A DNA stretch of 64,000 nt from Lingula anatina (taxonomy: Eukaryota; Animalia; Brachiopoda), in assembly GCA_051362555.1 (NCBI GenBank), contig CM120643.1, forward strand, positions 29,020,848 to 29,084,847, read 5' to 3'. Below are positions 8,312 to 53,351 of the stretch, piece by piece. The position numbers and the translations under genes are program-made. Every line of letters begins with the position of its first letter. The stretch's first letter is position 1. Below the pieces are notes generated by a model that was given only the letters and a program-made list of their open reading frames with translations, did no database searches and was not told the origin of the DNA.

Positions 8312-8545
8312 GTGAGTACCCTTTTTTATAGATTAGCAAGAAAAGTGAAGCGTTGTCACCCCTGTTTAACGTTTATATACTATATTCCCAGAGAATGAAA
8401 AATATGGCAACTCATATCTGTAGTTTGACGGCCGCGATGCGGGAGTTTTCATATCTTACCTCTCACCTCAATATGTCGTACATACACTGCTGGAAAGACA
8501 GTCAGTCTTGTGCCGATAGCGCTCTGAATTAATTAAGCCTCATAT

Positions 8546-12054: not shown

Positions 12055-12615
12055 CCTGCAAGGGTCAAGCAGACATAACACTCATCTTGGACGGATCTGG
12101 AAGCGTCAGCGCACCCGACTTTGCCAAACAACTGCAATTCATCAAGTCTTTGGTGAGGAAATTCAACGTTGGACCAAACGCGGTAAAGGTCGGCGTTCTG
12201 CAGTACTCAAACTACGCAGTGCAGGAGTTCAACCTCAACACTCACAGCACCGAGGCCGCCATCTTAGCCGCCGTCGACAAGATCAAGCAGAAGAGAGGTG
12301 GTACTAACACAGCTTTAGCCCTCTCCACCGCCCGCACCAGCAGTTTCACGACTGCCAAAGGCGACCGGCCAAACGTCTCGAACATCGTTATCGTCATGAC
12401 CGACGGCAGGTCTAATAACATGGCGGCAACCGTCAGAGAAGCGATCATGCTGCGTAAGATTGCGTTTGTGTACGCAATTGGAGTTGGGAGTAATGTTAAT
12501 ACTGCCGAGCTGAAGGCCATGGCTACCGACCCGGATAGTAAATATGTGTTTACTGTGACAGACTTCAGTGCGCTGTCAAATATAGAGACACAGTTAGCCA
12601 CGGATGCTTGTGCAC
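12055..12615 (+). CDS. Gene 1: VWA domain exon 2
   Basis: cag|...|gtgagt, 561 nt, phase 1-1; intact MIDAS. Confidence 0.93.
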
Positions 12616-14800: not shown

Positions 14801-15035
14801 CTATTAAGATTATTTTTGCCATGGACTCGAGTCTTATGCACTTGGTAACACTTTGAACATACTCGACAACGTTAAGTACACTATAATATAATATAATATA
14901 ATATAATATAATATAATATAATATAATATAATAAAGTCAATATATAAAAGCAATGTTTCCACATTTTGCTACTTTCATAGTCATGAACACCAAAACCACC
15001 CAGAATTGTAAGAAACAATATGTTTGGTCAAATAA

Positions 15036-15224
<189 letters not shown>

Positions 15225-15336
15225 TAAGCGCATTGTTTACTTTATGTTTCATTTGCTACTTTTTTTTATCTTAAAAGTATTATTCATTTTTTAAATCTGA
15301 TTATGTCAAATTATTAATGTGGCTTACAAATTCTAG

Positions 15337-15512
15337 TCCCACTGGCTCTGTTTCCGTTTCCCGCGCTCATTTTGGACGAGGTACTGGTTCCATTCTTATG
15401 GATAACGTCGCCTGCTCTGGGAACGAAGCTTCTATCCAAGATTGTGGTCACAGAGGTTGGGGGAAACACAACTGTCGTCACTTTGAGGATGCTGGTGTCA
15501 GGTGCCGCACTG
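15337..15512 (+). CDS. Gene 1: SRCR domain 1, C-half
   Basis: [21 protein letters not shown]...DC...HNC.H.EDAGVRC; phase 2-1; six Cys in total (group A SRCR). Confidence 0.92.
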
Positions 15513-17591: not shown

Positions 17592-17780
<189 letters not shown>

Positions 17781-17892
17781 TAAGCGCATTGTTTACTTTA
17801 TGTTTCATTTGCTACTTATTTTAATCTTAAAAGTGTTATTCATTTGTTTAATCTGATTATGTCAAATTATTAATGTGGCTTACAAATTCTAG

Positions 17893-18068
17893 TCCCACTG
17901 GCTCTGTTTCCGTTTCCCGCGCTCATTTTGGACGAGGTACTGGTTCCATTCTTATGGATAACGTCGCCTGCTCTGGGAACGAAGCCTCTATCCAAGATTG
18001 TGGTCACAGAGGCTGGGGGAAACACAACTGTCGTCACTATGAGGATGCTGGTGTCAGGTGCCGCACTG
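17893..18068 (+). CDS. Gene 1: SRCR domain 2, C-half
   Basis: Duplicate of 15337-15512; donor gtggat is weaker. Confidence 0.88.
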
Positions 18069-19809
18069 GTGGATGAACAGACTGTTTTCTTCAATCACGT
18101 CTTTTAGTCATGCTACATAATGGTATTAAGATTAATTTTGCCATTAATGTTAATAAATTAACTTTTTAGTCCCTTATATGTCCAAAACTGGTAGAGATAT
18201 GCCCATAGTTACTGTTGAACTTGAATAGGAAGTAATAAACTAGCAATCTAACTGTGATCTTGAAATTGACATTTGACCTACTTTTCACCATGAACTGAAC
18301 TTTGCAACTCTTTCGTCCCAATGCTGTTTGAGGGTGACCTAACCCCTACTCCCCTTTTTTCTAACAAAGGAAGGGAAGAGGTTCATTTTCCCCATATGCT
18401 GAAAATAGCTGGAACAGTGAATTCTCTATAACTGCCCTACCATACTATCTTGCATCTTACTTGTAGATTAGTATAATAGTTAACAGTTGAACTTTGACCC
18501 AAATTTCAACATGAACTTAAATTTGCAAATTTTCTGTACCTTATATCTCTAAAACGGCCAGAGATACGCCCATAGTTACCACTGAAATAGAATAGTCATA
18601 TGCTGGCAATCTATGATCTTGTAATTGGGCTTTGACCTAATTTTCACCATGGAACGCACTTCATAAATTTGGAATTGAACTTTTACTTTTCCCCATGATT
18701 TTGTCCTAAATTGTAATTTTCAACAAAAATGTTGAGAATTCTTGTACGTTATCAATATACATTAACAGATGGAAGTCTCCAATTAATCAGTTGCTATATC
18801 ACCAAGTCCGTGTTATGTATAAGATTTTTTTTTCGGCAATTCTCAGTCAAATTACCTTTGCCTTTTAGCTGATATGGTGTATGTAACTGTTAATTTTTTG
18901 TTTCCTTTAACAGAAATTAATAGAAATTACCACCACGCCGGCATCTCTCATCACAAAAAATGGCCACCATCCCCACCTAATTGTATTATGGTGATTTCTT
19001 AATAACTTTCGAAAAAGATTTCACATATCTATAAATCTGCTCGTTTATTTGTGAGTTTTTAAGTTTGTGTGGTCGTCTTCTTATTTTTCTAATGCAACCG
19101 ACATCTTACATACCGGCACATTCTCGTCAGACATCATGGCCAGCTTCCTGCTATCTACGGTGCCCGTCTCCTTCTTTAACGTATCTACAGTTGATGCCCA
19201 TGGCAGGGTTCCCAAAAATACGAGCTTGTGCTTGCCCAAGGTTAAAGTTGCCTTTTGTGTTTGTGCGTTTCGGTAAATTTTTTTCCGGCTGTAGAGGTCA
19301 CAATTTTAGAGATTAACAGAAAACCTGTGAAATAATGGTGATTGTGCAGTTGTCTTATGACGATAAACTTGGAAACACTGTTCGCCCTATCTTGTTAGAT
19401 GTTGGAATCAAGTTCCTAAATGAAACGTTTTCTACAGTGAAGGGTGCTATCATTATAACTTCTCTGGTGTGGTTTCGTTCGGCATGCCTTACCCAACAAT
19501 TTTACCCATATGTCTATTTGTTTATGATTTTGTCTAAATCTCTGGATTGTTCTCATAGAACAACCCAATCCTCTGGTATTTGTCGGGTTAAAATGCCCTC
19601 CTATGTTAAACGCTTGGTAAAAACGTATCCCTCTCTCTTAGGGGCCGCATATAAACTATATCATTGGGGTTGGGATATTTCAATGCTTACGCTAGATAGG
19701 TCAATTTTCTATTACTCAGATCCCCAATGTACAAGGCGAAGGGTTGCCTAGTTGCCTATGTAATAGTAAAATGAAATTATTATAGCAATGTACAAAATGC
19801 GGTAGGGGT

Positions 19810-26790: not shown

Positions 26791-27974
26791 GTAAGAACAG
26801 CAGGACATGTATAACATATGTATTTCCCTGTCCTATAGATAGATAGATAGATAGATAGGTATTAATCCATAAATGTCAATCTCCAAATACAATTTTTTTG
26901 TTAGAAATGAATAAACGATTGACATTATCAATATTTATTTACCGACCAGATAAGTCTTCAAAATTATCAGATAGTAAATCATTAGATACTAGATCGACTG
27001 GAAACATCAATCTGAATTTCATCAATTCACAGACTATTTGCTTGATATGTTGTATTCACCAGAGCTGATGTCGTTTTCTTTTTTTAATCACTTTGCAGAA
27101 ATCAAGAAGGCAATTTTCAAGCACATTTACATGTTAACGAAACACAAAATTTATTTGCCGTTTTTTTTTTTTTTTTTTTTTTTGACATCATACAATCGGG
27201 TAATTGAGGTCACTGGCGTTTTCGCACTTAGGTCTTGCGTAATCTCGATCACGGTTTCAGACCATGTGTTGTAACGTAAATTATTGAGTGAAACTAAATT
27301 TCTTTAAGAGTCAACAAGTGTAGAAATTGTTTTCGTGGTAGGAAAAGAAGGCTCATGTCAAAGTCACTTATAGTTTGATTTGATTGGTTTATTTCTCAAT
27401 TTGCAAGTTTCTGGCATGTGTAAACCACATGTGCAAACTAAGCATGAGTAATTCAATTTTTTTAATATCTTAAATTGAAAACAAGTCTCTTAGGCATTAT
27501 CTAACAAGGAAATGTTGAATGGTGGTTTGCACATGAGAAGGGAAAGTTCCTTGTAATCAAGACAATGGGAAGAAAACAAGTAAACGTATGATAAGTACAT
27601 ATACACACATACACGCCCACAGTCACTATTTGCATTTCACTAAAACACATCTAAAAGTCAATAGACGCTTGGACGAGCACTTAATTTCTCAACAAGTAAG
27701 AGAGGAGTTGGTTCTTTTTGCCAGCTGATAGTAAGGTAAGAGAATTCCCCAACGGCTAAGCTTTGGGTCTGTTAAAATAGACCAGGCACCACATGGACGG
27801 TAAGCTAATGGTAAGCTAACATTCTCCCGGCACCTAACTCAGCATTCAACCAGCTAACGTGACATATCTTTTCGTTGTCTTTTTTGTTCTTTCAATATTT
27901 ATTTTAATTTTTAAAAAATTATTTTATATCATTTATTTACTAAAATACAATAATAAACTAAGTTATGTTTGCAG

Positions 27975-28535
27975 TTTGCAAGGGCCAGGCAGACATAACG
28001 TTCATCATAGACGGATCTGGTAGCGTCAACGCACCCGACTTTGCCAAACAATTGCAATTCATTAAGTCTTTGGTGAAGACATTTGACGTTGGACCAAACG
28101 CGCTACAGGTCGGCGTTCTGCAGTTCTCTAGTAATGCGATACAGGAGTTCAACCTCAACACTCACAGCACCAAGGCCGCCATCTTAGCCGCCGTGGATAA
28201 GATCAAGCAGACGAGAGGTGGTACTAACACAGCCCTAGCACTTTTCACTGCCCGCACCAGCAGTTTCACGGCTGCCAATGGCGACAGGTCTAACATCTCG
28301 AACATCGTTATCGTCGTGGCCGACGGCGCGTCTGACAACAAAACGGCGACTGTCCGAGAAGCAGAAATGCTGCGTAAAATTGCGTCTGTGTTCGCAGTTG
28401 GGGTTGGAAGTCTTGTTAATACTGACGAGCTGATGGCCATAGCTAGCAAACCGGATAGCAAATATGTGTTTACTGTGACAGAATTTAGTGGGCTGTCCAA
28501 TATAGAGACAAAGTTAGCTACGGCTGCTTGTGAAG
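27975..28535 (+). CDS. Gene 2: VWA domain exon
   Basis: cag|...|gtgaat, 561 nt; DGSGS/GGTNT/ADG. Confidence 0.92.
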
Positions 28536-28795
28536 GTGAATAGCTTTAAATAGAGTAGCACGGAAATTGAAGCGTTTCCGTCTTTAAAGCGTTAACCTTA
28601 TATACTATATTACAAACGTAATGAAAAATATGGGTACTCATATATGTAGATTGACAGCCAACTTGTGCTTAATACTTAAATTTCATAAACAAATATAGGA
28701 ATGGACTCTATTCTTATCTACTTCTTTTCATCTTAACGATTTCTTCAACCTACAGATACTAATGTCGTATTTGATTAAATTTATTTTCATTTTAG

Positions 28796-31187: not shown

Positions 31188-31340
31188 TCAATAGTGGTCA
31201 AAATCCTTCCTCTTAAAGCGCCTGAATTTCTTGGCAATCTTTGCAAAAAAAGAATTTTGACCTCTTTGGTTTTGGACAGCAAGCGTTTGGGTGGTTGGCA
31301 ATAGTGGATTCTCTTGCTTTGCTGGGTCTCTGTCTGCAGG
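31188..31340 (-). CDS. Kinase-PTB gene A: terminal exon (PADRDPAKQ...SFFAKIAKKFRRFKRKDFDHY*)
   Basis: ttcattgcag| phase 0, 50 codons to TGA; AATAAA ~31026-31031 on -; alternative small exons at 31.7-31.95 kb possible. Confidence 0.6.
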   Translation of the reverse strand, partial: PADRDPAKQENPLLPTTQTLAVQNQRGQNSFFAKIAKKFRRFKRKDFDHY

Positions 31341-31535
31341 CTGCAATGAAGCAATATTTTCAGTTTGCTATTATAACAGAGGTCAAACCATTCGAACCTA
31401 ACAACAGTGCACCAAATTAACTTCATCCTTGGTTTTGCAGCAAAATAAAAGCTGTAAACTTTTACTCTAATATATCTATTAAGCGTTGAGACGTATGTTG
31501 AATCTAGACTCCAAAGTTTGCAAAAATACATACAC

Positions 31536-31588
<53 letters not shown>

Positions 31589-31961
31589 AGTAAAATTAAC
31601 CAAACAAAAGAGTAACATTTCTTATTAAGATTTTGCTGGTTTACAAAAGAGACCTGCCTTTGTACCAGTCCAAAACACACTTGACACAACATATCTAAAA
31701 TAAAACAAAAAAAAAAATGTTTTTTCGCTTACTGGTTTGTTACCAAAACATGCAAAAATCTAATAAAATGTGTACAAATATCCATAGCAATGATGGCGAA
31801 TTTTGAAAGGATCCTAGGTGTTAACTAAACAAGTAAGAGACTCGGCAAACTTAAAGATTTGCCACACAATTTTACATAGTAAATTAAAAAACAATACAAA
31901 TACGGTTTGGTAGAGATAGTGTTCAGAACATGCGCAAACACCTGTAAAACTGCACATATTA

Positions 31962-32229
31962 CAGCGGCGGATCAAGGATTATTTGAAGGGGGGGGGGGGG
32001 CGGAACAACAGACCTCGGATGCAAAGCCCACCATCGCCCTCTTGACGTGGGGTTCGGGGCCTACTATATAGCCAATAAATATTTTTGGTGTTTTTGAGAG
32101 CAAACGGACCTTTTTTTGGTTTAGAACTATGATTCCGCCAGTCAAAATTCTAATTTCAATAGGGGAATATTGATATGGTATATTTTTCAGAAACTGAATC
32201 TCCCTGAACCCCCTCTAAATCCGCCACTG
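31962..32229. mobile_element. MITE of the CAGTGGCGGATT family in a kinase gene intron
   Basis: cagcggcggat...atccgccactg, TA on both sides. Confidence 0.7.
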
Positions 32230-32260
32230 TAGTAAAATTGACATCATTTCTATAGCTTAC

Positions 32261-32372
32261 CCTATTACTTGCTGAACATGCAATACTACAAGCGGCATCA
32301 TTCACCCTGGCATAGATTTCTTCACTCAAATTTGTTCTAATCACAAATATACCCTCTCCCGTCTTGCAGTAT
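32261..32372 (-). CDS. Gene A: Dok-type IRS-PTB domain, exon 2 (YCKTGEGIFVIRTNLSEEIYARVNDAACSIA...)
   Basis: tttag|...|gtaagc, phase 2-0; resembles the DOK4/5/6 PTB C-terminus (CxTGEGxFxFxT...IYxxV..AA..IA). Confidence 0.88.
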
Positions 32373-32531
32373 CTAAAAAATCAAATCTTAAATTACATTA
32401 TCTTATTCCATGTCATAATTCTCTGAAATATATCAGTCATTCTGCCCTTACCTATATAATTATGACAAAATACATTTAACCAATCTTTGTATTCAATTAG
32501 CTTTTCTTATAGCAACAAAAATGAAACCTAC

Positions 32532-32721
32532 CGCCCTGCTTCAAAGACAAACTCATAGGTGTTGCTGCCGTATCTCTGCAGAGCAGTGATAGGCCATTCT
32601 TCAAGAATTTTCCTCGGATTCTCCACATCCCATAATATTATCTTCTCCCACGTGACCTGCAACAGACACTCCCCAAAGGTGGCACAGTTGGTTGCAGGCA
32701 GCAGGTATACATGGAATCTCT
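32532..32721 (-). CDS. Gene A: Dok-type IRS-PTB domain, exon 1 (ERFHVYLLP...GECLLQVTWEKIILWDVENPR...WPITALQRYG...FVFEAGR)
   Basis: tttag|...|gtaggt, 190 nt, phase 1-2; strong DOK4/5/6-like PTB motifs; not in the ORF track. Confidence 0.9.
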
Positions 32722-34495
32722 CTAAAATAATGTGAAAAAAAGTAATTCAATCTAACAACATTATGCTAACCTACTCAATAAATCGCCAAAATTATGATAT
32801 TAATGAACATTGTGTATCAAACGTTAAATGATCGCTATCTCGGCTCCTTTTTCTTTGACAGCAACATAAAAAGTGTTTAGGGAGAAAGTCACACAAAGAC
32901 CCGACGTTGCTTTGTCTTCAGCATTTCCTCTTCCTTGTTCACTGCAATTACTATCGTCAACTAATGAAATCGAAAAAGCAATTAAGTGACGGCACATTGA
33001 ATATAGTCACTAGGTGCATTTCGCTGAGTGTTTACAAGATCTAGCAATACATTTTTATTGCCACGCGTTCTAGTCTGATTGTTTAGGGAGGGGGGGGGGG
33101 GGCAGTTAGTGGTATTAATATGTGTAGTTGGATAAAATAAAATAGTCCAGAATGGTGTACGTACAGGTTTGAGAAGTTAAACATGAAAAAAATATTAGGA
33201 AAAAAACATTAGGAAAAAAACGAAATAGAATGTTTGGAAATTTAAACAGTTACTCTGGTGGCTTTGCGTCATGGCAATGAATCTGACATCGAATTAAGGC
33301 CAAAATATTAGTAAATTCAGAATTATTAGCTAAAATGTAAATTGCCCTTATTTGTCAGATAACCAATAATGCAAGTGATCCAAGCGGAGGGTACGATTTC
33401 CTGAAGGTAGCGGCGACGAACAGCGACGATATTTTTATGAACAGTGAACCCTTATTAGTTACGAAAAGCCCCCTTTTCAACAGGCGTGTTTTATTAATTA
33501 CTTCATGTCACAAAGTAAATTTATACAGGCAAAACTTTATTCAAGGAAATAGTTTCACGAAATGAACGAGAGTAAAATATAAGTCGGCACAAATATAAGT
33601 CATACAACAATGTATTTAAAGTATAATCCCTCCTGTTATGGGCCATGTCGGATTATAATGGCATACCTTGATGCAAAACATGTACAGTCTATCGTTTCTT
33701 CCACCGCGAGTCCCTTTATTTAATGTATTGTATTACTCATTACCCATTTCATTTGACACTCTCTCTTTTTCTCTCCCTTCCTCTTTCTCTTGTTAGAAGG
33801 AGGGTAAATAATTAAGCACTCAAAATCTGCATCACCAATCTTCAAAAAAAAAAAATAAATAAATAAATAATAAGTCAACGAACCAGTGGGCTGATCCACA
33901 ACATCCGACCCAGCAGACTGAATCAAATAACAGCTAGCACAAATTTATATGCAGATAGCTATAGTGTCACTACATACATAATCAGCTGCACGCGCGAAGC
34001 TGTTGAACAAAAGGATAGTTCCGTTTGTTTACATAAGTACTCTTAGGGGGCATGGCTACCCAGGCGACCAGGGGATTAGGCTAGTTACTATATGCCGTCA
34101 ACAATCGTTTAGCGACCCTATCATTATACACTCCCTCTATTGTATTTACCACCGCATTAATCGCAGTGTAATCTTCAAATGGTCCACGGGGTAAATATAC
34201 ACATTCTTAATACTAGTACGGTATATGATAAAATGATGGAATTTTTTCAATGGGAAAAGTGAGAATTCTATAGATTCTGTATTCTAAGTCGTGAAAATAA
34301 ATTTAAAATAGAACATTCCTGTTGAGAGCTCGGGGTAGCAACACTATTGAATACAGGCTATCTGCAGCTGATTTTTATGCAGTAAAGGCACCACATATGA
34401 TTTACTATTATTTTTTAGATTTTTAAAATTATGATAGTTTCCGTCATCTAGACATGGTTGTTCCTCTTCAGTACGAACAAAATACATTTACTTAC

Positions 34496-34553
34496 CAGTA
34501 ACACCTGGTTCATCAATTCTTCTGCTGGGATTGGGCATGTCACCTTGACACCT
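34496..34553 (-). CDS. Gene A: linker exon b2 (RCQGDMPNPSRRIDEPGVT)
   Basis: cag|...|gtaagt, phase 0-1; paralog of 36884-36935. Confidence 0.75.
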
Positions 34554-34867
34554 CTGTACAAAGGCAGAGAATTATAATATAACAATACAGAAATAATATA
34601 GTGACCTGAAACAATTAAATTCTGTGTTTCATTTCTAACACATTGCGATCTATTATATGCCACAGTTTATTAAGTTAAAGAAATATGGATTGCTTAGGCC
34701 AGAGATGATACTGGTCAGCTGGATTGAAAAATACGATTAATGAGCAATAACTTTATCTTATATATGAAGTTTGGTACATAGAGAAAGCCATTATTTTTAC
34801 CTGTTTTGCTTAGTTACAACATATGAATTATCATCTGGGCCACTGATCACAAAAATTATCAACTCAC

Positions 34868-34956
34868 ACTGTCAGGATCTTTTGGCAGCCGACTTTTAGC
34901 AGCTGGAATCGGACCTTTTTTGGCGTGCTGGATAGGATCCACTCTCTCTTTTACCT
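34868..34956 (-). CDS. Gene A: linker exon a2 (EVKERVDPIQHAKKGPIPAAKSRLPKDPDS)
   Basis: cag|...|gtgagt, 89 nt, phase 1-0. Confidence 0.78.
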
Positions 34957-35167
34957 CTGAAAAAAGTTGTTATACATACAATTTAGTATTAAGATATGTA
35001 CCTACAACAGAGACAGTGTTACAAATGAGCTTTAAATTTCTCTATGAACAAGCTAAAGGAAATAACTGTACACCTTTGCAAACTTTGATTTATGAGGCCT
35101 GAAAGATCATACATTGTCTATATGCAACCCTACCGAAGAAACTGAGGATGAATTACACATTTATAGT

Positions 35168-36791
35168 AGGGAAGGGTAAATCTCAAAAAAATTCCATAAC
35201 AGGTGTTTTCTGAGGCGAAATTTGATGCAGAACACAAATCTGACAATCATTTTTTGTAAAACAATTATTAAGGCTTTCAAAATGACAATTTTCAAAATGG
35301 CAGCCAAAACGGCCTACCCAAAGCTTCATTAACAACAATTAAAGGTATTATAGTGTGTCATATGTCTTTTCTTATGTTTTTGGGGTTGTAGAATCTATTT
35401 CTGATGTTAATACTGAGATTGATACATTTTACAGTGAGTTCAGTTACCATGTCAGCTGACAGTTAACTGTCAATCTAGAGTGAAGAGCCAGAATCTTCAA
35501 TAATGGGGAAAATGAACAACCTCCGTCATCTTGATCAATCAAAATGAGTGATATGATTTCCCAACATCTGTTGGATGGGAATTATAATGAAGAATCAATT
35601 ACTAGTAACCTTACCATAAAGTAAATATTTTTCTAAATTATTACAATAGGATGGATGATACACTTTTACATTTTTACATGTTTTACATGTATGAAGCCGG
35701 AAGACATCCCTATCATAAGCCGAGGCTAGCAAAGCAGTTGCCAGAGAAATCTCCAATGCCTGTATCTCCAAAAAAAGTATTCCAATCTTTGAGAAGTACA
35801 TTCCCAACAGAAGTATGTTGGATTATGATATATTTGGGGAACATTTAAAACATTAACTGTCTGTGAAGTGCAAGGATGATACACAAAAGTGAAAGGTTTC
35901 AATCAAAACATGACAAATAGTATTTAAGATTCATCATACATAAACACAATGCCTTTTATATGTAGTCTCAATATACAGTTATTCTGTTGTAAATGTTCTC
36001 AAAGAGAGAAAAGATACTCTTGGACATCCAGACATTGGATATATCTCAGGCATCTTCTTTGCTGGTCTCAGTACATGATAGTGATTGTTTCCCCGCCTTC
36101 TTATGTGCCGAATAAAAAAATTCCATCCATTTCTTTTTAATAATTTAAAGACTTTCCCCCATCGGTTGCTTGGGGTCAGGATAACTCTGATTCTTCTTCA
36201 TAATTCACATCCAGCAGAACTTGAGATATCTTATCACTCCTCGTTCTGACTGATTGAGATCTGGCTCTTCTTTCAAGCTTGACAGTAAACTATCAACCAA
36301 CAAGGTAACCAAACTCCATTTAAAATGTAACAATGGCAGTGTTAACATAAGAAAAAATATTTTACAACCTTAAAAACATAAGAAAAAGCATAATAAAAAC
36401 ATAGGTTCCTTTAATTGTCAATGTTGAAACCCTTGTTAGGGCATTTTGTCCGCCATTTTGAAAATTGTCATTTTACCATCCTTAATGGCTGTTGTGAGAA
36501 AAAAATAGTTGCACATGTGTGTTTAGCATCATTTTGTGCCATATAAAACACTCACTTATCAAAAATTTGTGCTTCACTCAACACTTCAATACAATTATAT
36601 ATGTATACATATAATTACTACAGTTACTGTATAAGCAGTGCATATGCTTTGTATGCGTTTTCAAAAATAGTAAAATTACCGACCTAAAGAATGCTCCTAG
36701 CTCAAATTTCTAATCTTTTTGGCCCATTTTGCCTCTAAAATCACCTGTTCCCTGAGAGATTTCCAAAAAAAGTTATTATTTACCGTACCCT
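35168..36791. mobile_element. Non-autonomous Mutator-like element (MULE)
   Basis: 9-bp TSD ATTTATAGT (35159-35167 / 36792-36800); termini agggaagggtaaat / atttaccgtaccct; long imperfect IRs (35240-35345 vs ~36408-36520). Confidence 0.8.
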
Positions 36792-36883
36792 ATTTATAGT
36801 GCATGGTCAATAAAGGCAAAACTTAAGACAGGTTTGGCGTTTTTGATTATCTGCCATGTCAGCAGCAACACTGAAATAGTTAC

Positions 36884-36935
36884 CGGTCATGTCTGGATCC
36901 ACAATGCTTGTACAGGACATGTCACCTTGACAGCT
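36884..36935 (-). CDS. Gene A: linker exon b1 (SCQGDMSCTSIVDPDMT)
   Basis: cag|...|gtaact, phase 0-1. Confidence 0.75.
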
Positions 36936-37553
36936 CTGTAACAGGACATAGAATAATAATATATAAATGTGAACGAAATATATTATATATCCTCCTTTCT
37001 ATATATTTTAGAAAAAATATTGACATCAGATGCTTTACTTCAATTCGAGAAGTTTATCATTTTCAAAGTCTGAATTGGGGAAGGTTTGAAGGAAATGTAA
37101 AAATATGATATGGCTATGGGAAATTTCAAACATTGATGATTTACCATGAAACCCAACAAATATAGGGTAACATTAATTTTCCCATTAGCTTCGGAATGAC
37201 TGCTTTTCAGAGGCACTTATATGAAAATAAGGTACATCTACAACATTAGAAAAGCTTATAAACCGTGAGCTAAAACAAAACTCTGTGATTTAATTATTAA
37301 CATATTGCTTAGCCTTTATGGAGCTCAGTTTATTGAGTTATAGAAATGTTGGAGGGCTAATATCACAAATTGATTGTATAAGATTTAGATATCATTGGAT
37401 GGTTGGATCGAAAATTACGACTTTTAAGTTGAAATTTAAACATAAAATGTGCGATAAATTTTGCAAAAGTAAACCAACCATGTTTTTTATTTTGATAAAT
37501 GTTTACGTGAATTATAAGATGAGCCAATGATAACAATTTTTTCATCAACTCAC

Positions 37554-37642
37554 ACTGGTAAACGCCTGTGACAGCTGTCTTTTAGCAGCTGGAATCTGAC
37601 ATTTTTTGGCCTGTTGGATAGGATCCACTCTCTTCTTTAGTT
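37554..37642 (-). CDS. Gene A: post-kinase exon a1 (ELKKRVDPIQQAKKCQIPAAKRQLSQAFTS)
   Basis: tttag|...|gtgagt, phase 1-0; conserved in copy B (54960-55048). Confidence 0.82.
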
Positions 37643-38799
37643 CTAAAAGAGAATTGCTACACATACTCAGTATATATTGATATTAAATTACTTTGTTTTC
37701 TTTCTTAAATGAATAAAATATCACAAAGCTTACATGAAATAGTTTTGCACCTTTGTATTATATTGCAAACTTTGATTCATAGTTACATAGCCTAGGTAAA
37801 ATGCTTTCTTTTTTCCAAAAACGGATTTCATATACCGGGTAAGTTATGTGAATGGAGAAGTTTGTAGTCAGGTGTGTGGCTGCCAATAAACTGACTACCA
37901 TAATTGTAATAATATGCAGCTGTTTTATTGGGAAGTGCTCTTTTGGGTTGGTCTGGTCAAGCATTGTTCTGTCCAAAAGGTAAGCATATGTCGACAACTA
38001 CTGAATACCTTTCAATTTTGGATGCAAGCGGACGGTTTTGCAATGCGTACAATTAGCTAAGAAATGTTTTACAAGACTGTTCATCTGGGTCATAATGGCA
38101 TGAAAAAGCAGGGATTGCCAGACAGTTTATTGTGCTACACGGAACAAACAGCACAGAGTTATACCCAGATTGATGTACCTATACAGAGGCCACACCCAAT
38201 GTATCGAAATCTTATCCCCAGGGCACAGGACTCGCTGTTATCAAGGATATACTGCTGCAACTAAACAAAGACGTCCAATCCATTAAAAATGAGGAGCAAA
38301 CAACGCGTTTTTCAGGGCCCTTAGAAAACATCAGACTTTGGCAGGTAAGTATACCAGACGACCTCTGTGAATGCCAGTGTACACAGCAAAACACCGTCGT
38401 CTGTTTCTCTTATGCATTTGACACCATAAACATTTCCATAAACCTTTCACTGAAACCATGTGGCGCTCTCATCTGTACCTGGTCAAAGTAGAGCACTACG
38501 ACGTGTCTCGTCAACAGTAACTAGATTCATTAGCAGCACCATTATTAAGAGTAATCGATAACAACCTGAAACCGGCAAATACAGGAATAATTTGGCACCA
38601 CCTGACTACCATTTGATGGGGGCAGCTTAATTAGGCACAATGTTAGGTTACACAATGAAAATGCCGGTAAAGAGAGCACTTTTAATTTAGTTGCAGTCCC
38701 AAGGGAATATGCAGCTACATTGGCCTTCAAGATCGCCAGATTTGAACCACATAGACAATATATTAAAAAAAATTTATTGCACATCTCAAAAAAGTACAG

Positions 38800-39460
38800 A
38801 TCTCAACAAAAAAAATACAAAATTGATAAATAACTATCTATAAATAACTAACTATAAATTACTATCGAATATCGGCAGGGGACCATACGCAGATAGAAGA
38901 TATCAGTCCAGGAAGAGAGGCTGCAGCTTTTTCCATTTTTCATTGAATTTATCTGCTGTCATGTTTCTCAGACTCATATTTCTCTCTGCGATGTAGGCCT
39001 GTTTCCATTCTATTTTAATATTTTCTCTGTTCGGGGTAATGTTTTTCATTTTAAATATACATATGTAATAAATTTTGTTATGATCAGCAAACTGTTGAGC
39101 GCATTGCACTCCAAATTTGGAATTCCTAGAATTATATCAGAAGGTGTTAATTGTAGTATTTGTCCAGTCTTTAAGTGGATCCAGTCTTGTATTTTTGCCC
39201 AAAGGGGAGCAATTACTTTGCACTCAATAAATAAGTGTTGAAGAGTTTCAGGGTGTACGTTACAGAAAGAGCAGGTCTCTGTGTCTTTTATCCCAATTTT
39301 TCGTAAAAATATATTTGTAGCTAAAATTATTTTTGATACTCTATATTGAAACCAGCGCAGTTTAGTATCTAAAGTACATTGGAAAGGAATATTTTTCAAG
39401 ATTTTCCACTCTTCAGCTATGAGAGGTTCTTTAGAAAATACAAAATGTGGGTAGGTCACT
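38800..39460 (-). mobile_element. 5'-truncated L1/Tx1-type LINE fragment (ORF2 C-terminal zf-RVT), frameshifted
   Basis: KLRWFQYR...CSFC...ETLQHLFIEC...LW motif. Confidence 0.85.
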
Positions 39461-39970
39461 ACTCCTAATCAACCGTCTACTTGTTTTACAACAAAACTGA
39501 ATAAAATTGGGCATGTTCTGACCAATGTCTGGAATGTTACTGCAGATTAAACTCTAAAAACCTATCACAAGGAATGCCTTGCCACTTGAGAGCCCTGGTA
39601 GCAGCCAGATGAGGCCAGGCGTTAGATGGACTGTTGCTGTGACTACACACTGACTAGACACTGACTAGACACTGAGGGTCCTTTTACAGATAATAATTTC
39701 GGAAGATCCAAAATATCGCTTTTAGTGATTGTGGTATGACTTAGATTCAGCAATGATTTTTTTTACCTCATTGATAAATTCAATTAAAGACTTGGTGCTA
39801 CACTGACAGCAAAGAGAGTATTAAATTTAAAATACAATTTTGATCCTCATCTTCATTTATCAGTCAGTAAAATATGAAAACAAAATGATTTTGAAAAAAT
39901 GTTTAATATTAAATGTAAAACCTGTGTGTGTGTGTGTGCGTGTGTGTGTGTGTGTGTGTACACTCTTCAA

Positions 39971-40035
<65 letters not shown>

Positions 40036-40342
40036 CAAACTTAAAATTATAGTGATAAGGTATATAATAAACACATTAATACATAAAACCATTAAAGGCT
40101 ACCTGTCATTTACGGTAAAAACTCAATAATTTTGTCATTAAAAATGAAATAATGTTTTTAAATGTGTGAATCCTACCTGAATATAATTATTAGGTGACAA
40201 ACTTTTTAAAATTTTTGAGCAGCCCATTTTCAAGTTTGCCAATATTTCAAAGTGAAAACATTACATCGATGTAGAATCATATTCAAACAAAATTATCAAA
40301 AGCGACTAAATTTTCAAGTTTCTACCATATGTAATTGGCTAC

Positions 40343-40477
40343 CTGAAAATGTTGGCCGCTTCTTTGGATCTTGACTCCAAGAATCAGTTATGATCTTCCT
40401 TAGCCAGTCTTCTGTGTCAGGGATTTTATTCATATCAGGTCTCTTTCCTTCAGTCACACATGCTATTGTCATCTCAT
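40343..40477 (-). CDS. RIPK-like kinase A: subdomains X-XI
   Basis: EGKRPDM...WSQDPKKRPTF; cag|...|gtagcc, phase 1-1. Confidence 0.88.
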
Positions 40478-40887
40478 CTGTGGAAATTAAGCATGCATGG
40501 GAAAATTAAAGTGTATTCCATGGATTGTTTTAAAGAGGGTTAGGGTTATTTAATGAGGTTCAAGTCCATCTAATGAATAAAAATTTCACCATTTTTGTTT
40601 GTTTCCCGAGAGATACATAATACCAATATCGGTATGATATAACATAAAAAATTAAATATCATTTTGCAGCTTAATTTAGCAATATACCTTTCTTTTGCTG
40701 TCTTTGGTTTGCAGCTATGTTTAAACAAAGCCCCAAGAATTTTGTGAATTAAACAGCAACAAACAAAAATATATTTTACACACGCCATTCAATTTCATAC
40801 CAGTACATGGAAGGCCCTTTGATCTTCTCTCACTCTTTTCACAAAAAGTTAAAATAATATCAAAATATTAGTAAAATATATATTTAC

Positions 40888-41086
40888 TTGTGTAAGGCAT
40901 TTCCTTGGCCAGGATTTCCCAGACAACAATACCAAAGGCATAAACATCAAACTTAACATTTGGCTCACAGTTGATATTTTCCCATTGTTCTGGGGGCACA
41001 TGAGTGATTGTTCCTGCATGTTCCTCTCTCTTACTCATGCCTAGCCTTGAACATGAGCGCCACTGAGCCAATCCAAAGTCACACAG
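40888..41086 (-). CDS. RIPK-like kinase A: subdomains VII-IX
   Basis: LCDFGLA...GTITHVPPE...DVYAFGIVVWEIL; phase 0-1. Confidence 0.92.
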
Positions 41087-41358
41087 CTGATCAAAGGAAA
41101 AATGAAAAACTAAAAGGGCAATATACCAGGGGTATGTACCTAGACAGCAAACAGTGGTTGCCCTGCTATTATGCCATGGACCTAATACATTGGGATGAAT
41201 CATAAAAAAGTCTATCAGTGGTATGTCATTGTGTTATCCATCAAAGTAACACCCTTTTGCCAAGATTTAGCCAATTGCTACATTATTGTCAGCTGTATAT
41301 ATACCCGGTAGGGTCTATATAGGCTCCCCCCCCCTCCCCCAGTCAACATACTCCGTAC

Positions 41359-41656
41359 CTTTACATTAAAATCCTCATCTACCAGGACATTCTGTGCTTT
41401 AAGATCCAGATGTAGCATGGCTGGGTTGCAGGTGTGGATGTAATTCATTGCAAGGATTATCTGGTAGATCATCTGGACTTGGAGAGGGAAAGGCACTTCA
41501 AGGTCATGCACAAAGTCAGATAGGGATCCGTGGCACAAATACTCCATTACCAATGCATATTCTTTAGTCTCCATGACAACACCAAATAGTTGGACTATAT
41601 TAGGATGCCTGACTCTCCATAACTTTTTAGCTTCACTCTTCAAGCCTATTATAACC
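41359..41656 (-). CDS. RIPK-like kinase A: subdomains III-VIb
   Basis: SEAKKL...HPNIVQLFG...LVMEY...HLDLKAQNVLVD; phase 2-0. Confidence 0.93.
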
Positions 41657-41882
41657 CTGTGAAAATATATTTATTAAGAGAAATAGGCCAATTTAGCCAA
41701 TGTACTATCATTATTATGATAAAGAGACGATAAAAAGAAATAAATCAACAAATCACATTCAATTCAATACATCAGTTAAGAAGAGATAGCTTATATAAAT
41801 TTGCCCTATAGGTACAATGTTGTTGCTTTTGTTTCCATTTCAACAGTTACAAGGGCATAGTTACAACGGCTGAAACCCTCAC

Positions 41883-42058
41883 TTTTCAGGAACCTCCACT
41901 TCCAGAACTTTCTTCACTGCAACATCCCCCCAGTGTTTGTGATAAGCGTGGTAGACCTTTCCAAAGCCTCCCGTACCCATCAGCTTGTGGTATGTCAAGT
42001 CAGTAAACTGGACTGGTACAAAAGCATCAGTTAATAACTCTTTCGACGCCTCCTGTTG
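41883..42058 (-). CDS. RIPK-like kinase A: subdomains I-II
   Basis: MGTGGFGKVYHAYHKHWGDVAVKK (RIPK2/3/4-like HxxW..VAVK); phase 0-2. Confidence 0.9.
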
Positions 42059-42170
42059 CTGTTAATAAAGTTCACCAATGGTTATACCATTGTATTTTTA
42101 TTGTTTAGAATGTCACAGCAATAAAATAAAAATACAATGTTGATTTTTCATTGAATTAATTTATATTGAC

Positions 42171-42224
42171 CTGATTATTTACATCTTCCTCGTATTGGAA
42201 AGCATGACTCAGACAATTCTGAAG
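42171..42224 (-). CDS. Kinase A: N-terminal 54-nt exon (LQNCLSHAFQYEEDVNNQ)
   Basis: cag|...|gtcaat, phase 0-0; open in both copies. Confidence 0.65.
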
Positions 42225-43161: not shown

Positions 43162-43839
43162 AGGCCCTATTTCACACAGACCACGAATCCCACGAATCGC
43201 CAGGAATTGACAAATTTTAGGATTCGTGAGGATTCGTGAGATTTTGCCAATTTTCTGGTCTTATTCGACACGCTCACGATTCACTTACGATACAGGTACG
43301 ATAGTGTTACGAATATTCGTGGGATTCGGCTGGAATCGTGAGATTTTGCCAATTTTCTGGTCTAATTCGACACGCTCTACGATTCAGTTACGATACAGGT
43401 GCGATAGTGTTACGAATATTCGTGGGATTCGGCTGGAATCGCACGAATATTGTCCAGAAATTCACTACGAATTTTTGGAATCGGGAGTTCGTGGCCAAAA
43501 CTATGAACAGCTCAAAATTTTTGCCACGAATTCCCGATTGATCAAGAATTGCAAGAACTTACTACGATTATATACGAATCTGTTAAGAACTTCACGAACT
43601 GATTACGATTCAACCAAATTTTCAATTCCTGGCGATTCGTGGGATTCGTGGTCTGTGTGAAATAGGGGCATCAAAGTTTTTGCCACCCATTCCTGTTGGT
43701 CAAGAAGTGCAAGAACTGACTACGAATAGATACGAATCTGTTAAGAACTTCACGAACTGATGACGATTCAACCACGAATGGTGAAATTTGTCAATTCATG
43801 GCCATTCGTGGGATTCGTGGTCTGTGTGAAATAGGGCCT
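43162..43839. mobile_element. PIF/Harbinger-like MITE with a duplicated right end
   Basis: TIR aggccctatttcacacagaccacgaatcccacgaat; TTA TSD; absent at the paralogous site ~58217. Confidence 0.85.
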
Positions 43840-44050
43840 TTAAGGGGAGGGGACATGAAAGCAGACTAACTAATTGGGTGTATTCCCACAGGGGCCAATA
43901 CTTTAATTTTGTATACTATTTTACTTGTCCCTGATTTTAGAGGGTAGAGATTTACCAGGTTAATTAACCAGTCACGGTGAAAGCCAAGCATGGTAAGACC
44001 GTTCATCTTTAAAGTTCCTCTCAAGTTTTTCGTTTCCTACCTGTTGTATA

Positions 44051-45020
44051 AGCTACTCTTACAACCGGTCGCGCGTGTTTCTACGAGCGGTTTGCGTGCA
44101 AAAAATTGGCCAAGCAGTAAGATACACGCACGTGGAACTTCCTTTTTTGGTGGACGCAAACACGACGCAAAGCACGCAGCCCGAAAACTGGCCGGCCAGT
44201 TTTTCGCTTCGACCTGTCTGCGACAATTAGAACGCCTGGAGCACGCTCGTAGCACGCAAGACAAAAGTACTGAGAAGGTGCGCTAGGAAAGCCTGCCTTG
44301 CGAGTCGCTAGGGCTACATGAGTTGTCCTGTCAAGCAGAGACGCTAATTGCAAGGAGCGATGGCCGTGGAAATTGCACTCATTCCTTGAGTTTGTGTTGC
44401 TTCCTGCGTACGTGGCACACACTCACCACTTACGAAGGGCATGCAACGCACGGCGAAAGTAGTGCCCTTTTACGTCAGTTTTGCTTCACACTTGCCTCAC
44501 ACGTTTGTGATGACATATTGATGGCGTGCGTCAGTTTTGCTTCCCTTTTTCTGCCTTTTGGAGGCATATTATAAACTAAATTGAGCAAAAAATTTTAAAG
44601 TTTTAAAATTGTTGTACACGTTACACAGTTGACGCTCATTGTAAAGACACGAGCTTGCGGCGTGAGCACGCCTTTTATACACCAGGCATGGGGTTGACGC
44701 ACGTGCAACGCATTCAATGTGTGCTCTCGACTCTGTTCGTTAGTTGTGAGGGCGTGGGTCTTACTCAACACGCAAAAGGCACTTGCTCCTTCATTGCTTG
44801 CGACATGCGTTTTGCACAACGCACGTCTCACTTGCGCCCTTGCTGTTCGCAGGCTATTCGTAGAATCATTTGGACATGTCCAATATCCTCCGTACGTGCT
44901 CACGGGCTGTCTGCGAACTCGAAATTTCGTAAGAATGACCTGCACGGAACGTGAGATACTGCGTAAAATTTGGACGCAAACAGCTCGTGAGAGCCCGTAC
45001 GTCCGGTTGCGACCGAGGCT
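44051..45020. mobile_element. GC-richer non-autonomous DNA transposon (Harbinger-like)
   Basis: Imperfect TIRs (caaccgg / ccggttg), TAA flanks, GCACG-rich; absent from paralogous block B. Confidence 0.6.
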
Positions 45021-45049: not shown

Positions 45050-46558
45050 GGGCAGAAACCACTAAATCAACCAATCACCGACTGTTGTGTTGTTGACCAG
45101 ATTGACAATTTTTTCTGGTGAAACCAACTTGTATTCATCATCTGGGGGTTGGGGCTGGCTGCTGGACAAACTCTCTGACTGGGCCCTCCTAGGTCTGAGT
45201 ATGACGGGTGCATCAGGGTTGCTGCTGAGGGTTGTTGGTGGCCTGACAGGGGGTGGAGAGGAGGCTGCCTGGTACTCTTGGCTGGGTTTAATGTATCTTC
45301 TCACAATAGGCTCTGGAAGCTGGTCAGACTTGTTTCCTTTCACAAATACACTTTTTCTTCGTTTCTTCCAGTTACTTTTACCGTACGGCATGGTGGTAAG
45401 AAAGTTACTATACTGATTCTAGAGGCAGGGACAGGGCATTTTATAGGATCAGCTGTCCATTGTCTCTCCCAGGTGTGCAGGAAAGCAGGATACATGGCAA
45501 CAAAAGGTATGAACAGTGATTGGAAGTGGAGTTTCCTGTAAACAGCAAACTGCATGGCCCCAATGCAGGAGGGGGGTATCCAGCTTAGCAGTGAGTATTG
45601 TTCTGAAGGGAGGGGCAGGAAGCTGATTTCCTGTATCCTCACAACACACCCAAACAAACAAACATAAACAACAGTTGTGACAATTAACCTTGCACTTGAG
45701 TTTAAGTAATTTTTAGATATTTTAAAATATTTTTATTAGTAATTTTCCACTTCTCACACTTTATTTCTCAGCAAAGTGCACTTAAACCAGTGACAACCAG
45801 TTAAGATGCTTATCTCAGATTTTCACACATGTCCAGCAGCAGGTGTCCAAATTTCAAAACAATTGAAACAAATTCAGGCACAGAAATTTGCATTTAACTT
45901 TTTATCACTCATGAAATTGTGCTTTCTCACCAGGTGCAATGTTGGCTAAAGTGGCCCATACAGCAACCACATTTTCAACTTGACAGGGCTCAGTCAACAA
46001 GAGACCGTTCTCAGTCATATTGGTCGGAGCAGTTGGCAGTGTATTAAGGTTTTGATTTTTGGTGTCAGAAGGTAAGATCGGGGGGGGGGGGGTTCTGTGC
46101 AGGGCAGAAGCCACTAAATCAACCAATCACCGACTGTTATAGACGAATGTAGTTCAGTGAGAGAAAATGAGTGCTTTTTTCCATGTTTTTCTGGCATTTC
46201 TTGTGTGTTGCTAGGGTTAATTTTGGTATCAACTAGCAGGCTAGGGTGTAAACTACTGCCAGTTTTTTTTTCAGGACCAGGCACAGGTGCGATGCAGTCG
46301 TGAGACCTCTGGCGGAGGGGGCTACTGACTGTGAGTGGTGCAGTGGTTTGTTTACAAACAGAGGGGTGCACATGTTCAAGTGATGCCAGTAAGCAAGCAT
46401 AACTGATAACAGTACATTTTTTTGCCATTGGGAGTTATGTCAGTGTGTCTGCTGTTCATGGGGATGGGAAATGTTTCACAGAGTAATTTTGTTCATGCAG
46501 TTTTGCAGGCATTTCTTAGTATGGTGGTCAATGGGAAATTATTTGGTGGTTTCTGTCC
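45050..46558. mobile_element. Composite DNA transposon with 4-bp TSD (ATCA), possibly Sola-like
   Basis: TIRs gggcagaaaccactaaat / atttggtggtttctgtcc; empty site at ~58606-58612; second left terminus at 46102. Confidence 0.75.
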
Positions 46559-50691: not shown

Positions 50692-52008
50692 AAAGGTACT
50701 TGACTTTGGTTTACTTTGTGAGAGTTTCAATGAGCCACCAACTATAGGTATTCACAGCAAAGTGTCCCTTCCAGCCTTGTCATGCCAGCTTCTGCATGTT
50801 GTCTACTCTCTAGGATCACCAGAAATAAACAATTATTCAACAAATATCCATTTGTTCAAGTAACATAGTAAGAGACAGATTTTTTTTAAGATTCAACTGC
50901 ATTTGAAGGAACATTTTGGTGAGCAACTGAACATAGTTTTATAAGAAATGAAGAGACTAAACAGTGATTGCATTCTATATCCTCGTTTCTTTGTTTGCTA
51001 AAAGGGAAGTATACATTATAAATTATAACTTAATTAATGTAATATAGATATAATGTTTATAATGCACACTACAAATTAGATCAATTTTTTCATTTTCAAT
51101 TTGATTAGATGCCAAAATGATCCAATGCATTACTGTAATACATACCTTCCTCAATCCAATTTTTCTACACTCTGTACTCTTCCACTATGATCCCGAATTA
51201 AAACTGGCTTTATAGTAAACAGCCGGCGCCTTCACTCATTTGCTGTTTGTCTCATAAACAAAGACTTAGACAGGATACCACACATCTGATAACACCAAAT
51301 AGGTGGTTGATGTAATTGGTCTAACAATAGCTGCAGGAATAGAGACCTAATAATAGGTGCCAGGCTAACAAAAGACAGTTGTTGAATCTGTGGTTGGTGA
51401 AGTAGGGTATTCTCTAACATCAGCTAACTGTTAAACCTTAGGCTTAAAGTGTGATTGAGCATGATTTATAATAAAATGTATCTTTAAAAATATCAATTTG
51501 TCCTCGTTTCCCACCCTTTATGAGGGACACTACCATACCCTTTATGTTCACTTACTTTTACATTACATTACATTACACATATGAGGCTGGATTGAAATTT
51601 CACTTTTTAAAACAGCCAAGGTCAATTAAAATCTGACTATAAGCAAGATAAAATTTGACTAGATAAGGTTGACTTTCAATAAAATAGAAGAAATATGAAG
51701 TTAGTAAATATCATCATAAAAATACTAAAAATACATTTACTGTGTTTTTATCTTTTTGTGAAAATTAACTAGCAAAGTCAAGAATATACCAGTAGGAGCC
51801 ATGTTTAATTTACCACAACCCTAGATTTCATGACTGATTTGATAAATCCTGATAATATTCTTTTTTAATGGCGGGCATAGCATTGCAAAAGTTGTGATTT
51901 AGTGAATGAGTTTAAAGGGTTGATTAGGCATTTTTCTATTAGATGTTGTTAAACTTATATTGCCCTTGACTTATTCTCATACTTTGAGTAAGGTACACAC
52001 CATACACA

Positions 52009-53351
52009 CACTGGACAATAGAAGTGTCACCCCCTAAATCAGAGTAATAAAAGTAGGCAGATCTCGGGTAGTTATAATGCCTGGTCTACTTATAATGTGA
52101 CTAATGAGTATAAAACCGCTATACCATGGAATTGTATTGTTGGTCTATTACATGTACAGCAAATGTTATTCCTGTCTTCCTCAAATATGGCAAGATACAG
52201 GCAATTATCTAACGGTTATAGGTGCAAGTTATTAACCTGAAGAGGCGGAATATAAGCAATGTCAGAATATCGATACAATTGAATTGTTCAGTCAGAACCA
52301 TGCAAAGGGTCTGGTCTCGGTATAGAAACACTGGATCAAGAGACAAATTGCTTCTGATGGGTCGTCCAAGAAAAACTACTGGCCGTGAAGATCGACGACT
52401 GATTTTGATGTCCAGGTTGTTAAAGTTCTACATTGCTTGTCAGTTGACAACACAGTGGAACAATTTCACACATAAGCATCTGTCTGTGAAAATTACTAGG
52501 CGTTGGTTACATGCTCAGAGAGTGTACAGCAGGGTAGCAAGACTGAAATCTCTTATATCGTTACAAAACAGGCAACATAGAGTAAACTAGGGTCAACAGG
52601 ATCTGGAACTGGACAGTCCATGCCAATTGGTCCTATATATATTTTTTTCTGATGAGTGTCGCTTTTGTCTGACCTCTGATGGCAGACGGGTACGATGCTG
52701 GCAAACTGCTGCACATGCACTGAATTTTCGAACCCGGAGCAGCATATTTATTATGGTGTGGGGCTGCATCAGCATCCATGGCGTAGGCAAATTGATAGTG
52801 GTTGATGGAAACATGAATCACTAGAAATATATCAATGTTTTGGAGTCAGGTTTGCTACCATTACTAACATGTTTGGTGACAGGAATTATCCATTTGTTCA
52901 CCAGGATGACAATGCTCCTTGTCACAGGCCCAGAGCAGTTGATGATTGGTTTGACCAACATGGCATTCGCAGGGTGATGTGGCCTGCCCAGAGTCCGGAT
53001 GCAAACATAATAGAAAATGTGTGGAATGGTATGTCAAAACTTTTTACAAATGCCCGTCTAACCAGCAGAGAAACTCTGTTATATTCAGTGTTTCATACTT
53101 GGGCCATCATAAGCCCTGAACGCATCAGATATTTATATGAATCCTTGCCTCATAGACTGGCACCTATTATTAGGTCACGTGGCTATGCCACTAAGTACTA
53201 ATTTTGGACTTGAAATTGCATATTTTGGTAGAATGTATATTTTGTTCTCATTTTGTAATTTTTGTGAAATTTGATGTCAATAAAATGATACCAGGAGCAT
53301 ATCATTGCACAGTCATTTATCTCCCCCATAGTATTCTTCTATTGTCCAGTG
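52009..53351 (+). mobile_element. Tc1/mariner copy 2 with defective transposase
   Basis: Same TIRs and ORF fragments as 1039-2411; right TIR partly deleted. Confidence 0.95.

Follow-up and report, generated by a model that had tools for sequence, protein, structure and literature searches.

A RIPK1-derived kinase joined to a Dok-type PTB domain at a tandemly duplicated, transposon-remodelled locus of Lingula anatina

Two key questions are raised by a locus on the minus strand of a 64,000-nt stretch of the Lingula anatina genome (contig CM120643.1, positions 29,020,848 to 29,084,847; hereafter the window, whose numbering is used for all coordinates): (i) whether exons for a RIPK-like protein kinase and exons for a Dok-family phosphotyrosine-binding (PTB) domain belong to a single gene; and (ii) if so, where the two halves came from and what their product might do. 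The initial annotation chained twelve exons into a 534-aa kinase-PTB protein. We find that the kinase-PTB chain, with eleven of these twelve exons, is real, its splicing being predicted from sequence. On balance we favor the reading that the gene is a chimera of the Lingula lineage, produced by exon shuffling between RIPK1 and a Dok gene and predicted to encode a receptor-targeted kinase.

The chain lies in the PTB-bearing member of a tandem array, which we call copy B. Its twelve minus-strand segments have AG/GT ends, total 1605 nt and form a single open frame of 534 codons:

42224-42171, minus strand: exon 1 of the initial annotation, 54 nt, phase 0-0; without support, and at best a cassette that could be included in frame
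42058-41883, minus strand: exon 2, 176 nt, phase-0 acceptor; kinase N-lobe with Gly loop and VAVK lysine
41656-41359, minus strand: exon 3, 298 nt; αC Glu to the catalytic loop HLDLKAQN (PK_Tyr_Ser-Thr, E 8e-20)
41086-40888, minus strand: exon 4, 199 nt; DFG and PPE, with an in-frame 3-nt deletion relative to copy A and RefSeq
40477-40343, minus strand: exon 5, 135 nt; end of the kinase C-lobe, with an in-frame 9-nt net deletion relative to copy A
37642-37554, minus strand: exon 6, 89 nt, phase-0 donor; post-kinase helix, the last RIPK1-derived exon
36935-36884, minus strand: exon 7, 52 nt; linker, paralogue of exon 9
34956-34868, minus strand: exon 8, 89 nt; duplicate of exon 6 (70/89 nt identical)
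34553-34496, minus strand: exon 9, 58 nt; aligns with the PH-to-PTB linker of Lingula Dok5-like
32721-32532, minus strand: exon 10, 190 nt; main Dok4/5/6-type PTB exon, with Gln at the first pocket Arg (motif near 32570-32584)
32372-32261, minus strand: exon 11, 112 nt; last PTB strands and C-terminal helix
31340-31188, minus strand: exon 12, 153 nt up to the stop; tail, including a basic amphipathic segment

Poly(A) signals (AATAAA/ATTAAA) follow exon 12 at 31031, 31009 and 30942. In the spliced protein Pfam detects both of the domains that had been proposed: segments 2-5 encode the kinase, and segments 10-11 the IRS-type PTB (E 5e-9 and 0.11). Of 3000 random AG..GT chains matched to exons 6-12 in length, none was open.

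The same architecture is found in another assembly of the species. The copy B PTB exon retrieves the L. anatina RefSeq protein XP_013385571.1 (486 aa, kinase plus IRS; 87%), which is A0A1S3HJD8 and carries the automatic name 'ankyrin repeat and protein kinase domain-containing protein 1' (ANKK1); it also retrieves a Dok5-like adaptor, XP_013385582.1 (L. anatina; PH plus IRS; 73%). Over segments 2-12, last exon included, 454 of 513 aligned residues (88.5%) are identical between copy B and the RefSeq chimera, so that an independent annotation of a different assembly arrived at the same exon content. A 530-aa RefSeq form (UniParc UPI00078A6AAD) ends in the equivalent of copy B exon 12, the tails being 82% identical, while the 486-aa form reads through the equivalent of the exon 11 donor and has no basic tail. 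Exons 2-12 of the original chain thus stand, with their AG/GT ends, open frame and RefSeq match. Exon 1 does not: it has no Met, is missing from both RefSeq forms, and is conserved between the tandem copies (92.6% identity) no better than the introns (92.9-94.2%). Because the true ATG exon is lost, the 534-aa product as first proposed is without a start codon.

The parent of the kinase half is RIPK1. This half is 63% identical to Lingula RIPK1 (XP_013410819.1, which has a kinase, a RHIM tetrad and a death domain), and convincing similarity ends just past exon 6. In a midpoint-rooted kinase tree of 56 rows, a hand-picked subset of search matches, copies A and B and the RefSeq chimera group together (100/100), with Lingula RIPK1 as their sister (100/100), and stand apart from ANKK1/RIPK4; deeper forks, including those towards RAF-like outgroups, are partly open. 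The best solved relatives by sequence and fold are RIPK2, RIPK1, RIPK4 and RIPK3. Both the tree and these matches place the chimera in the RIPK clade, as the initial annotation had supposed. The Gly loop, VAVK Lys, αC Glu, HxD..N, DFG and xPE are all present in copies A and B and in RefSeq; the catalytic motifs are intact, and the domain is a predicted kinase. An AlphaFold model (17-row alignment) renders the kinase confidently and the PTB and tail with low confidence, and the domain packing is uninformative. The Arg preceding the His of the αC-β4 loop is common to the chimera and human RIPK1, and may occupy the position of RIPK3 R69. RIPK3 dimerizes via R69 behind αC (PMC12062462).

What follows the post-kinase helix in RIPK1 is gone. 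No RHIM tetrad (V/I-Q-V/I-G) occurs in the chimera sequences, the Pfam Death domain of Lingula RIPK1 is not found in them, and there is no death-domain exon in the 64-kb window. The chimera is not a RIPK1 orthologue in the sense of kinase plus RHIM plus death domain (PMC12119088), having neither of the latter two. Nor is it an ANKK1 or RIPK4, and the RefSeq name is accordingly wrong: Pfam finds no ankyrin repeats, and the kinase falls outside the ANKK1/RIPK4 clade.

The parent of the other half is a Dok. Among the four PTB sequences available for comparison, the PTB is identical to that of Lingula Dok5-like at 67 (copy B) or 69 (RefSeq) of 100 positions, versus 53-56 for another Dok, and its best match in the PDB is DOK5 (E 7e-20, versus 2e-4 for DOK1). 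The Dok4/5/6 type first assigned to it is therefore upheld. The first ESM Atlas match is DOK6 at 0.83, a lead only. Upstream of the PTB, exon 9 aligns with the PH-to-PTB linker of Lingula Dok, and exons 8+9 repeat exons 6+7. The chimera tail does not significantly match the C-terminus of Lingula Dok and contains a single, terminal Tyr. The identity of a Dok adaptor was rejected, the chimera having neither an N-terminal PH domain nor a Tyr-motif tail.

Could these still be two adjacent genes, or remnants of two, merged by the initial annotation and by the RefSeq pipeline alike? Invertebrate annotations are known to suffer from false fusions (PMC4967905). The Dok gene is probably on the same RefSeq scaffold: the chimera and Dok records share their longest contig (156,709) and have near-consecutive accessions, with RIPK1 on another contig, and the chimera is thus probably linked to its Dok parent. 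RNA reads, moreover, provide no junction for any predicted exon pair (four of nine listed species-matched runs, 6-30% of each, at a 95% likeness threshold). We nevertheless consider a merger very unlikely. A separate PH exon, which the initial annotation had named as the sign of an independent PTB gene, is absent from the 64 kb, as is a Dok C-terminal tail, and the PTB exons consequently have no other 5′ end. The unit of RIPK exon plus Dok linker is itself duplicated (exons 6+7 as 8+9), so the two must have been joined in DNA before that duplication, which argues that the join is genomic rather than a product of annotation. Finally, the chain is conserved in frame across the 11-12% protein divergence between the two assemblies.

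Copy B is not alone. The window holds three tandem units, two of which were missed at first; together they change which readings of the locus are possible:

58462-58430, minus strand: copy A exon 1 with ATG, its protein identical to the RefSeq N-terminus
57188-57013, 56786-56489, 56239-56038, 55335-55192 and 55048-54960, minus strand: copy A exons 2-6, an intact kinase
61736-61529, minus strand: copy C, a dead fragment with part of exon 2 and no ATG exon

Copy A is identical to the RefSeq chimera at 295 of 314 residues. It has no exons 7-12 of its own, its homology to copy B stopping at 54461, and none of the 78 minus-strand frames of at least 36 aa at 42.6-55.0 kb passes the Pfam cut-off as a 3′ domain for it (one gives a sub-threshold DUF7070 match). 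Between copies A and B, an AG/GT-bounded stretch at 51330-51144 (minus strand) resembles a decayed exon and has no long open reading frame and no Pfam match.

The 5′ end of copy B has been remodelled by insertions:

44050-44041, minus strand: remnant of the true first coding exon, its last 10 nt and GT donor; the ATG is gone and an in-frame stop lies just upstream
44050-45020, minus strand: insertion of ~970 bp with imperfect terminal inverted repeats and TA flanks, standing where copy A has 141 bp
45050-46558, strand undefined: 1.5-kb insertion with terminal inverted repeats in the region upstream of copy B
43165-43849, strand undefined: insertion resembling a miniature inverted-repeat transposable element, in copy B intron 1

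No replacement start was found: the 300 nt preceding the remnant donor contain a single ATG, which is in frame but followed by a stop. Exons 2-6 are bounded by phase-0 introns, and the copy A start can therefore reach the PTB in frame in three ways, as A1+B2-12 (527 aa), A1-6+B7-12 (531 aa) or A1-6+B2-12 (830 aa, with two kinases). Since copy B has no ATG, the protein would most likely arise from the copy A start spliced into copy B exons in one of these forms. The 1.5-kb insertion contains a GT..AG skip of 343 nt (45590-45934) in RNA reads of three of the four runs; the insertion, or copies of it elsewhere, is transcribed and spliced on the plus strand.

Is the frame maintained by selection? 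Between copies A and B, dN (nonsynonymous) is 0.041 and dS (synonymous) 0.100, a ratio of 0.41 (Fisher p 0.004, 299 codons). Intron divergence between them is 6.7%; the 1871 aligned intron bases contain 25 gaps, of which 21 are not multiples of three. In neutral simulations at half the intron-derived rates, the 516-codon frame of copy B was kept in 0 of 5000, and with substitutions only in 141 of 1500, on the presumption that exons 7-12 are as old as the tandem duplication. The ratio and the 0 of 5000 together indicate that copy B was under coding constraint for most of the time since the duplication. Either it lost its ATG recently, or copy A provides a way around the loss.

Several observations weigh against a functional receptor-targeted kinase made from this locus. 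In addition to the lack of junction reads, there is almost no exon depth in the four RNA runs, whose reads fall on repeats only; this null result is weak evidence, because the stretch has no control gene and most reads are only 95-99% alike. Copy B is missing the 141 bp with 5′ leader and ATG that copy A retains, and carries three upstream insertions besides. The RefSeq chimera is an automatic prediction, and the PTB is modelled by AlphaFold only at low confidence. In the PTB pocket, RefSeq has both arginines, spaced 15 apart as Arg212 and Arg227 of IRS-1, the pair used there for phosphotyrosine binding (PMC3507883), and in copy B the first of them, aligned with DOK7 Arg158, is Gln. The mapping relies on an alignment with Dok-7 and on spacing, including that of the DOK7 alleles R158Q, G161R, G166R and G171D; R158Q is a listed myasthenia allele in a set that variably lowers MuSK phosphorylation (PMC10117378). 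PMC4985636, PMC4479986 and PMC5855712 gave no residue mapping. The copy B PTB would be predicted to bind phosphotyrosine more weakly than the RefSeq version, which weakens the idea of NPxpY coupling for this copy. The function proposed for the chimera is a prediction.

Some of the same facts suit a scenario in which the family is real and copy B was recently silenced, a transposon having taken its start and the PTB exons here having fallen out of use. We hold this possible, with odds clearly on the other side, and the same applies to its corollary that copy A yields only a 317-aa kinase through intronic polyadenylation. The deleted ATG and leader, the Arg-to-Gln change in the pocket and the absence of exon reads all speak for it; copy C is dead already; the copy B branch of the kinase tree, at 0.047, is the longest of the three chimera rows (0.029 and 0.025 for the others); and copy A, read on beyond exon 6, meets a stop three codons later and has poly(A) hexamers at 54746 and 54706. 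However, copy B has 516 codons with no stop or frameshift and both of its kinase indels are in frame, so that silencing would have to be very recent; and the exon 6 donor of copy A is intact, with phase-matched acceptors available in copy B.

A further scenario is suggested by how copy B and RefSeq differ. Kinase identity is 93%, against 80% for the linker, 88% for the PTB and 82% for the tail, and 9 of the 12 PTB changes fall within one stretch of 32 residues around the pocket (p 0.02, with the window picked post hoc). Such clustering would be equally compatible with an altered choice of ligand, with a decoy role and with relaxed selection. A decoy role would make the protein an immune sensor, in which the PTB is a bait for pathogen factors that strike Dok or phosphotyrosine signalling by receptors, and its engagement sets off the RIPK1-derived kinase or kinases. 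This we think improbable, if somewhat less so than a merger. It is suggested by the parentage of the kinase, an immune kinase; by the greater divergence of the PTB than of the kinase; by a difference in copy number from the RefSeq set, which yielded one such protein; and by A1-6+B2-12 forming one open kinase-kinase-PTB frame of 830 codons, which calls to mind, by analogy, the plant tandem kinases and kinase-fusion receptors that carry integrated domains. It is doubtful to about the same degree that the locus might be an animal counterpart of the plant tandem-kinase receptors, with the copy A promoter driving an 830-aa RIPK-RIPK-PTB protein whose fast-changing PTB, with its altered pocket, would act as a decoy for pathogen factors that target phosphotyrosine signalling and whose two RIPK1-derived kinases would pair inside one chain. 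Relaxed selection, however, predicts the same pattern in the PTB, which was compared with RefSeq at the protein level; and the 830-aa splice is only predicted from frames, with a pathogen ligand that is hypothetical.

We return to the preferred reading, a RIPK1-Dok chimera made by exon shuffling and targeted to receptors. That there is a real, functional chimeric family we regard as highly probable and, granted this, PTB-directed targeting as its way of working as somewhat more probable than not. Shuffling was the origin proposed by the initial annotation, and it has gained from the analysis: RIPK1-derived and Dok-derived exons are joined in frame, and the parent of each half has been traced. 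From this anatomy we infer the following steps. A DNA-level copy of RIPK1 exons 1-6, of which exons 2-6 make up a phase 0-0 module, may have joined a duplicated Dok segment; the junction unit of exons 6+7 would then have been duplicated to give 8+9, and the 5′ half later duplicated in tandem to give copies C, A and B. The two halves are about equally diverged from their parents and the frame is kept throughout, the near-equal divergence being as expected for a single old joining event.

As to its working, the PTB could dock on NPxY-type receptor tails; the PTB of Dok6 binds the NPQY motif of TrkC (PMC2901200). In both proteins the hydrophobic moment peaks in the tail (0.93 and 0.76), for which the model gives a low-confidence helix; this basic helix might keep the kinase at the membrane and could stand in for the lost PH domain. 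When the protein docks and clusters on an activated receptor, its kinase domains would come together and start RIPK-type Ser/Thr phosphorylation of receptor-proximal proteins. Such signalling would be independent of the scaffolds that tie RIPK1 to FADD/caspase-8 or to RHIM partners.

How unusual is this architecture? Among 272 fetched proteins, no further protein combines a kinase with a Dok-like PTB: four have a Dok-like PTB, namely two chimera and two PH-PTB Doks. Among the best 120 of 1269 matches both domains occur only in the Lingula protein, and the best 150 of 674,766 representatives (cut-off about 194 bits) add no protein with a Dok-like PTB. Fusions in which kinase and PTB are both distant would score below these cut-offs. 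Word-based searches for kinase plus PTB (2 matches of 5 candidates, and 3 of 39) are weak, because they missed the vertebrate Doks, and the ESM Atlas gave generic kinase clusters and no kinase-IRS cluster. In the sets searched, then, this is not the widespread annotated family that would have made the locus unremarkable. No publication on the chimera or its accessions was found in the open literature, a search that did not extend to supplements and subscription papers on Lingula immunity. RIPK1-like proteins are reported in Lingula (PMC12119088), but the term PTB is absent from the main text, as available, of that RIPK evolution paper and of another (PMC9573974). The available part of the Lingula genome paper deals with domain shuffling for collagens, not kinases (PMC4595640), and that of PMC11463336 does not treat RIPKs. 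The claim that the architecture had not been described therefore holds for publications but not for databases, since RefSeq and UniProt already contain it for L. anatina as a misnamed automatic model. The chimera is a lineage-restricted RIPK1-Dok variant, which databases list under a wrong name and the literature searched does not describe.

Several known proteins share parts of its design. The RefSeq chimera has the same architecture and exon content as copy B, but it is a single copy with its own ATG and both PTB arginines, whereas the window has three units and a PTB copy with no start. Lingula RIPK1 is the parent of the kinase and post-kinase helix; its intermediate region, RHIM and death domain are replaced in the chimera by a Dok linker, a PTB and a new basic tail. 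Dok4/5/6 (Lingula XP_013385582.1; human DOK5 PTB, PDB 1J0W) is the parent of the linker exon and the PTB, whereas the chimera has no PH domain or Tyr-motif tail and is fused to an enzyme. HMTK1 of Monosiga brevicollis likewise has kinase and PTB in one chain, and PTB-guided substrate targeting has been demonstrated for it biochemically. The HMTKs are choanoflagellate tyrosine kinases of unrelated origin with an HM motif in the catalytic loop (PMC3082566), whereas the chimera is of the RIPK/TKL (tyrosine kinase-like) type, with HLD and one C-terminal IRS-type PTB. Membership of the HMTKs was rejected on the HLD loop, the RIPK affinity and the lack of an HM motif. The RIPK-like kinases of amphioxus resemble the chimera in lineage-specific tandem expansion and new domain partners, their combinations including LRR-kinase (leucine-rich repeat), DEATH-kinase, Zalpha, SH3 and ZU5; they differ in that a PTB is not mentioned in the main text, as available, of PMC9573974. 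The plant proteins WTK4, RWT4 and Sr43 are possibly alike in having one or two kinases plus an integrated domain at a copy-variable locus, but plant tandem-kinase and kinase-fusion receptors have unrelated kinases and would be an analogy only. Among the relatives of the chimera are seven listed RIPK-clade kinases, unnamed or little described, that are fused to LRRs, Mind-bomb SH3 repeats or a caspase domain. The RIPK kinase domain is often shuffled.

The rest of the window contains three single-exon VWA domains on the plus strand (7732-8331, 12024-12635 and 27962-28543; DNA 78-95% alike, Pfam E 2e-42 for the last), which are probably exons of a single multi-VWA gene or members of a tandem set, oriented convergently to the kinase gene. 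A degenerate Tc1/mariner transposon is present in two copies, 92.7% alike (1032-2377 on the plus strand, and 52002-53335), with HTH_Tnp_Tc3_2 and DDE_3 pieces. A 2.5-kb tandem duplication (94.6%; 13012-15588 and 15645-18144) has ~70% similar inverted pieces at 38064-39771, in copy B intron 5; the same intron holds a LINE-type (long interspersed nuclear element) retroelement fragment at 39046-39468 on the minus strand (zf-RVT, E 1e-9). Rfam found no match within the window.

Finally, we note what the locus means for the RIPK family. Its reach is limited: the chimera was found in a single lineage, and invertebrates were already known to combine RIPK kinases with unusual domains; a database misannotation, the ANKK1 name, is corrected by it. 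Lingula still has both parents and the junction exons can be traced, so the locus shows cleanly how a new signalling architecture was assembled and then remodelled by tandem duplication and transposons. The sole characterized kinase-PTB fusion that we found in print is that of a choanoflagellate. If expressed, the chimera would be a phosphotyrosine reader wired directly to a RIPK1-type kinase in an animal, bypassing the death-domain scaffolds.

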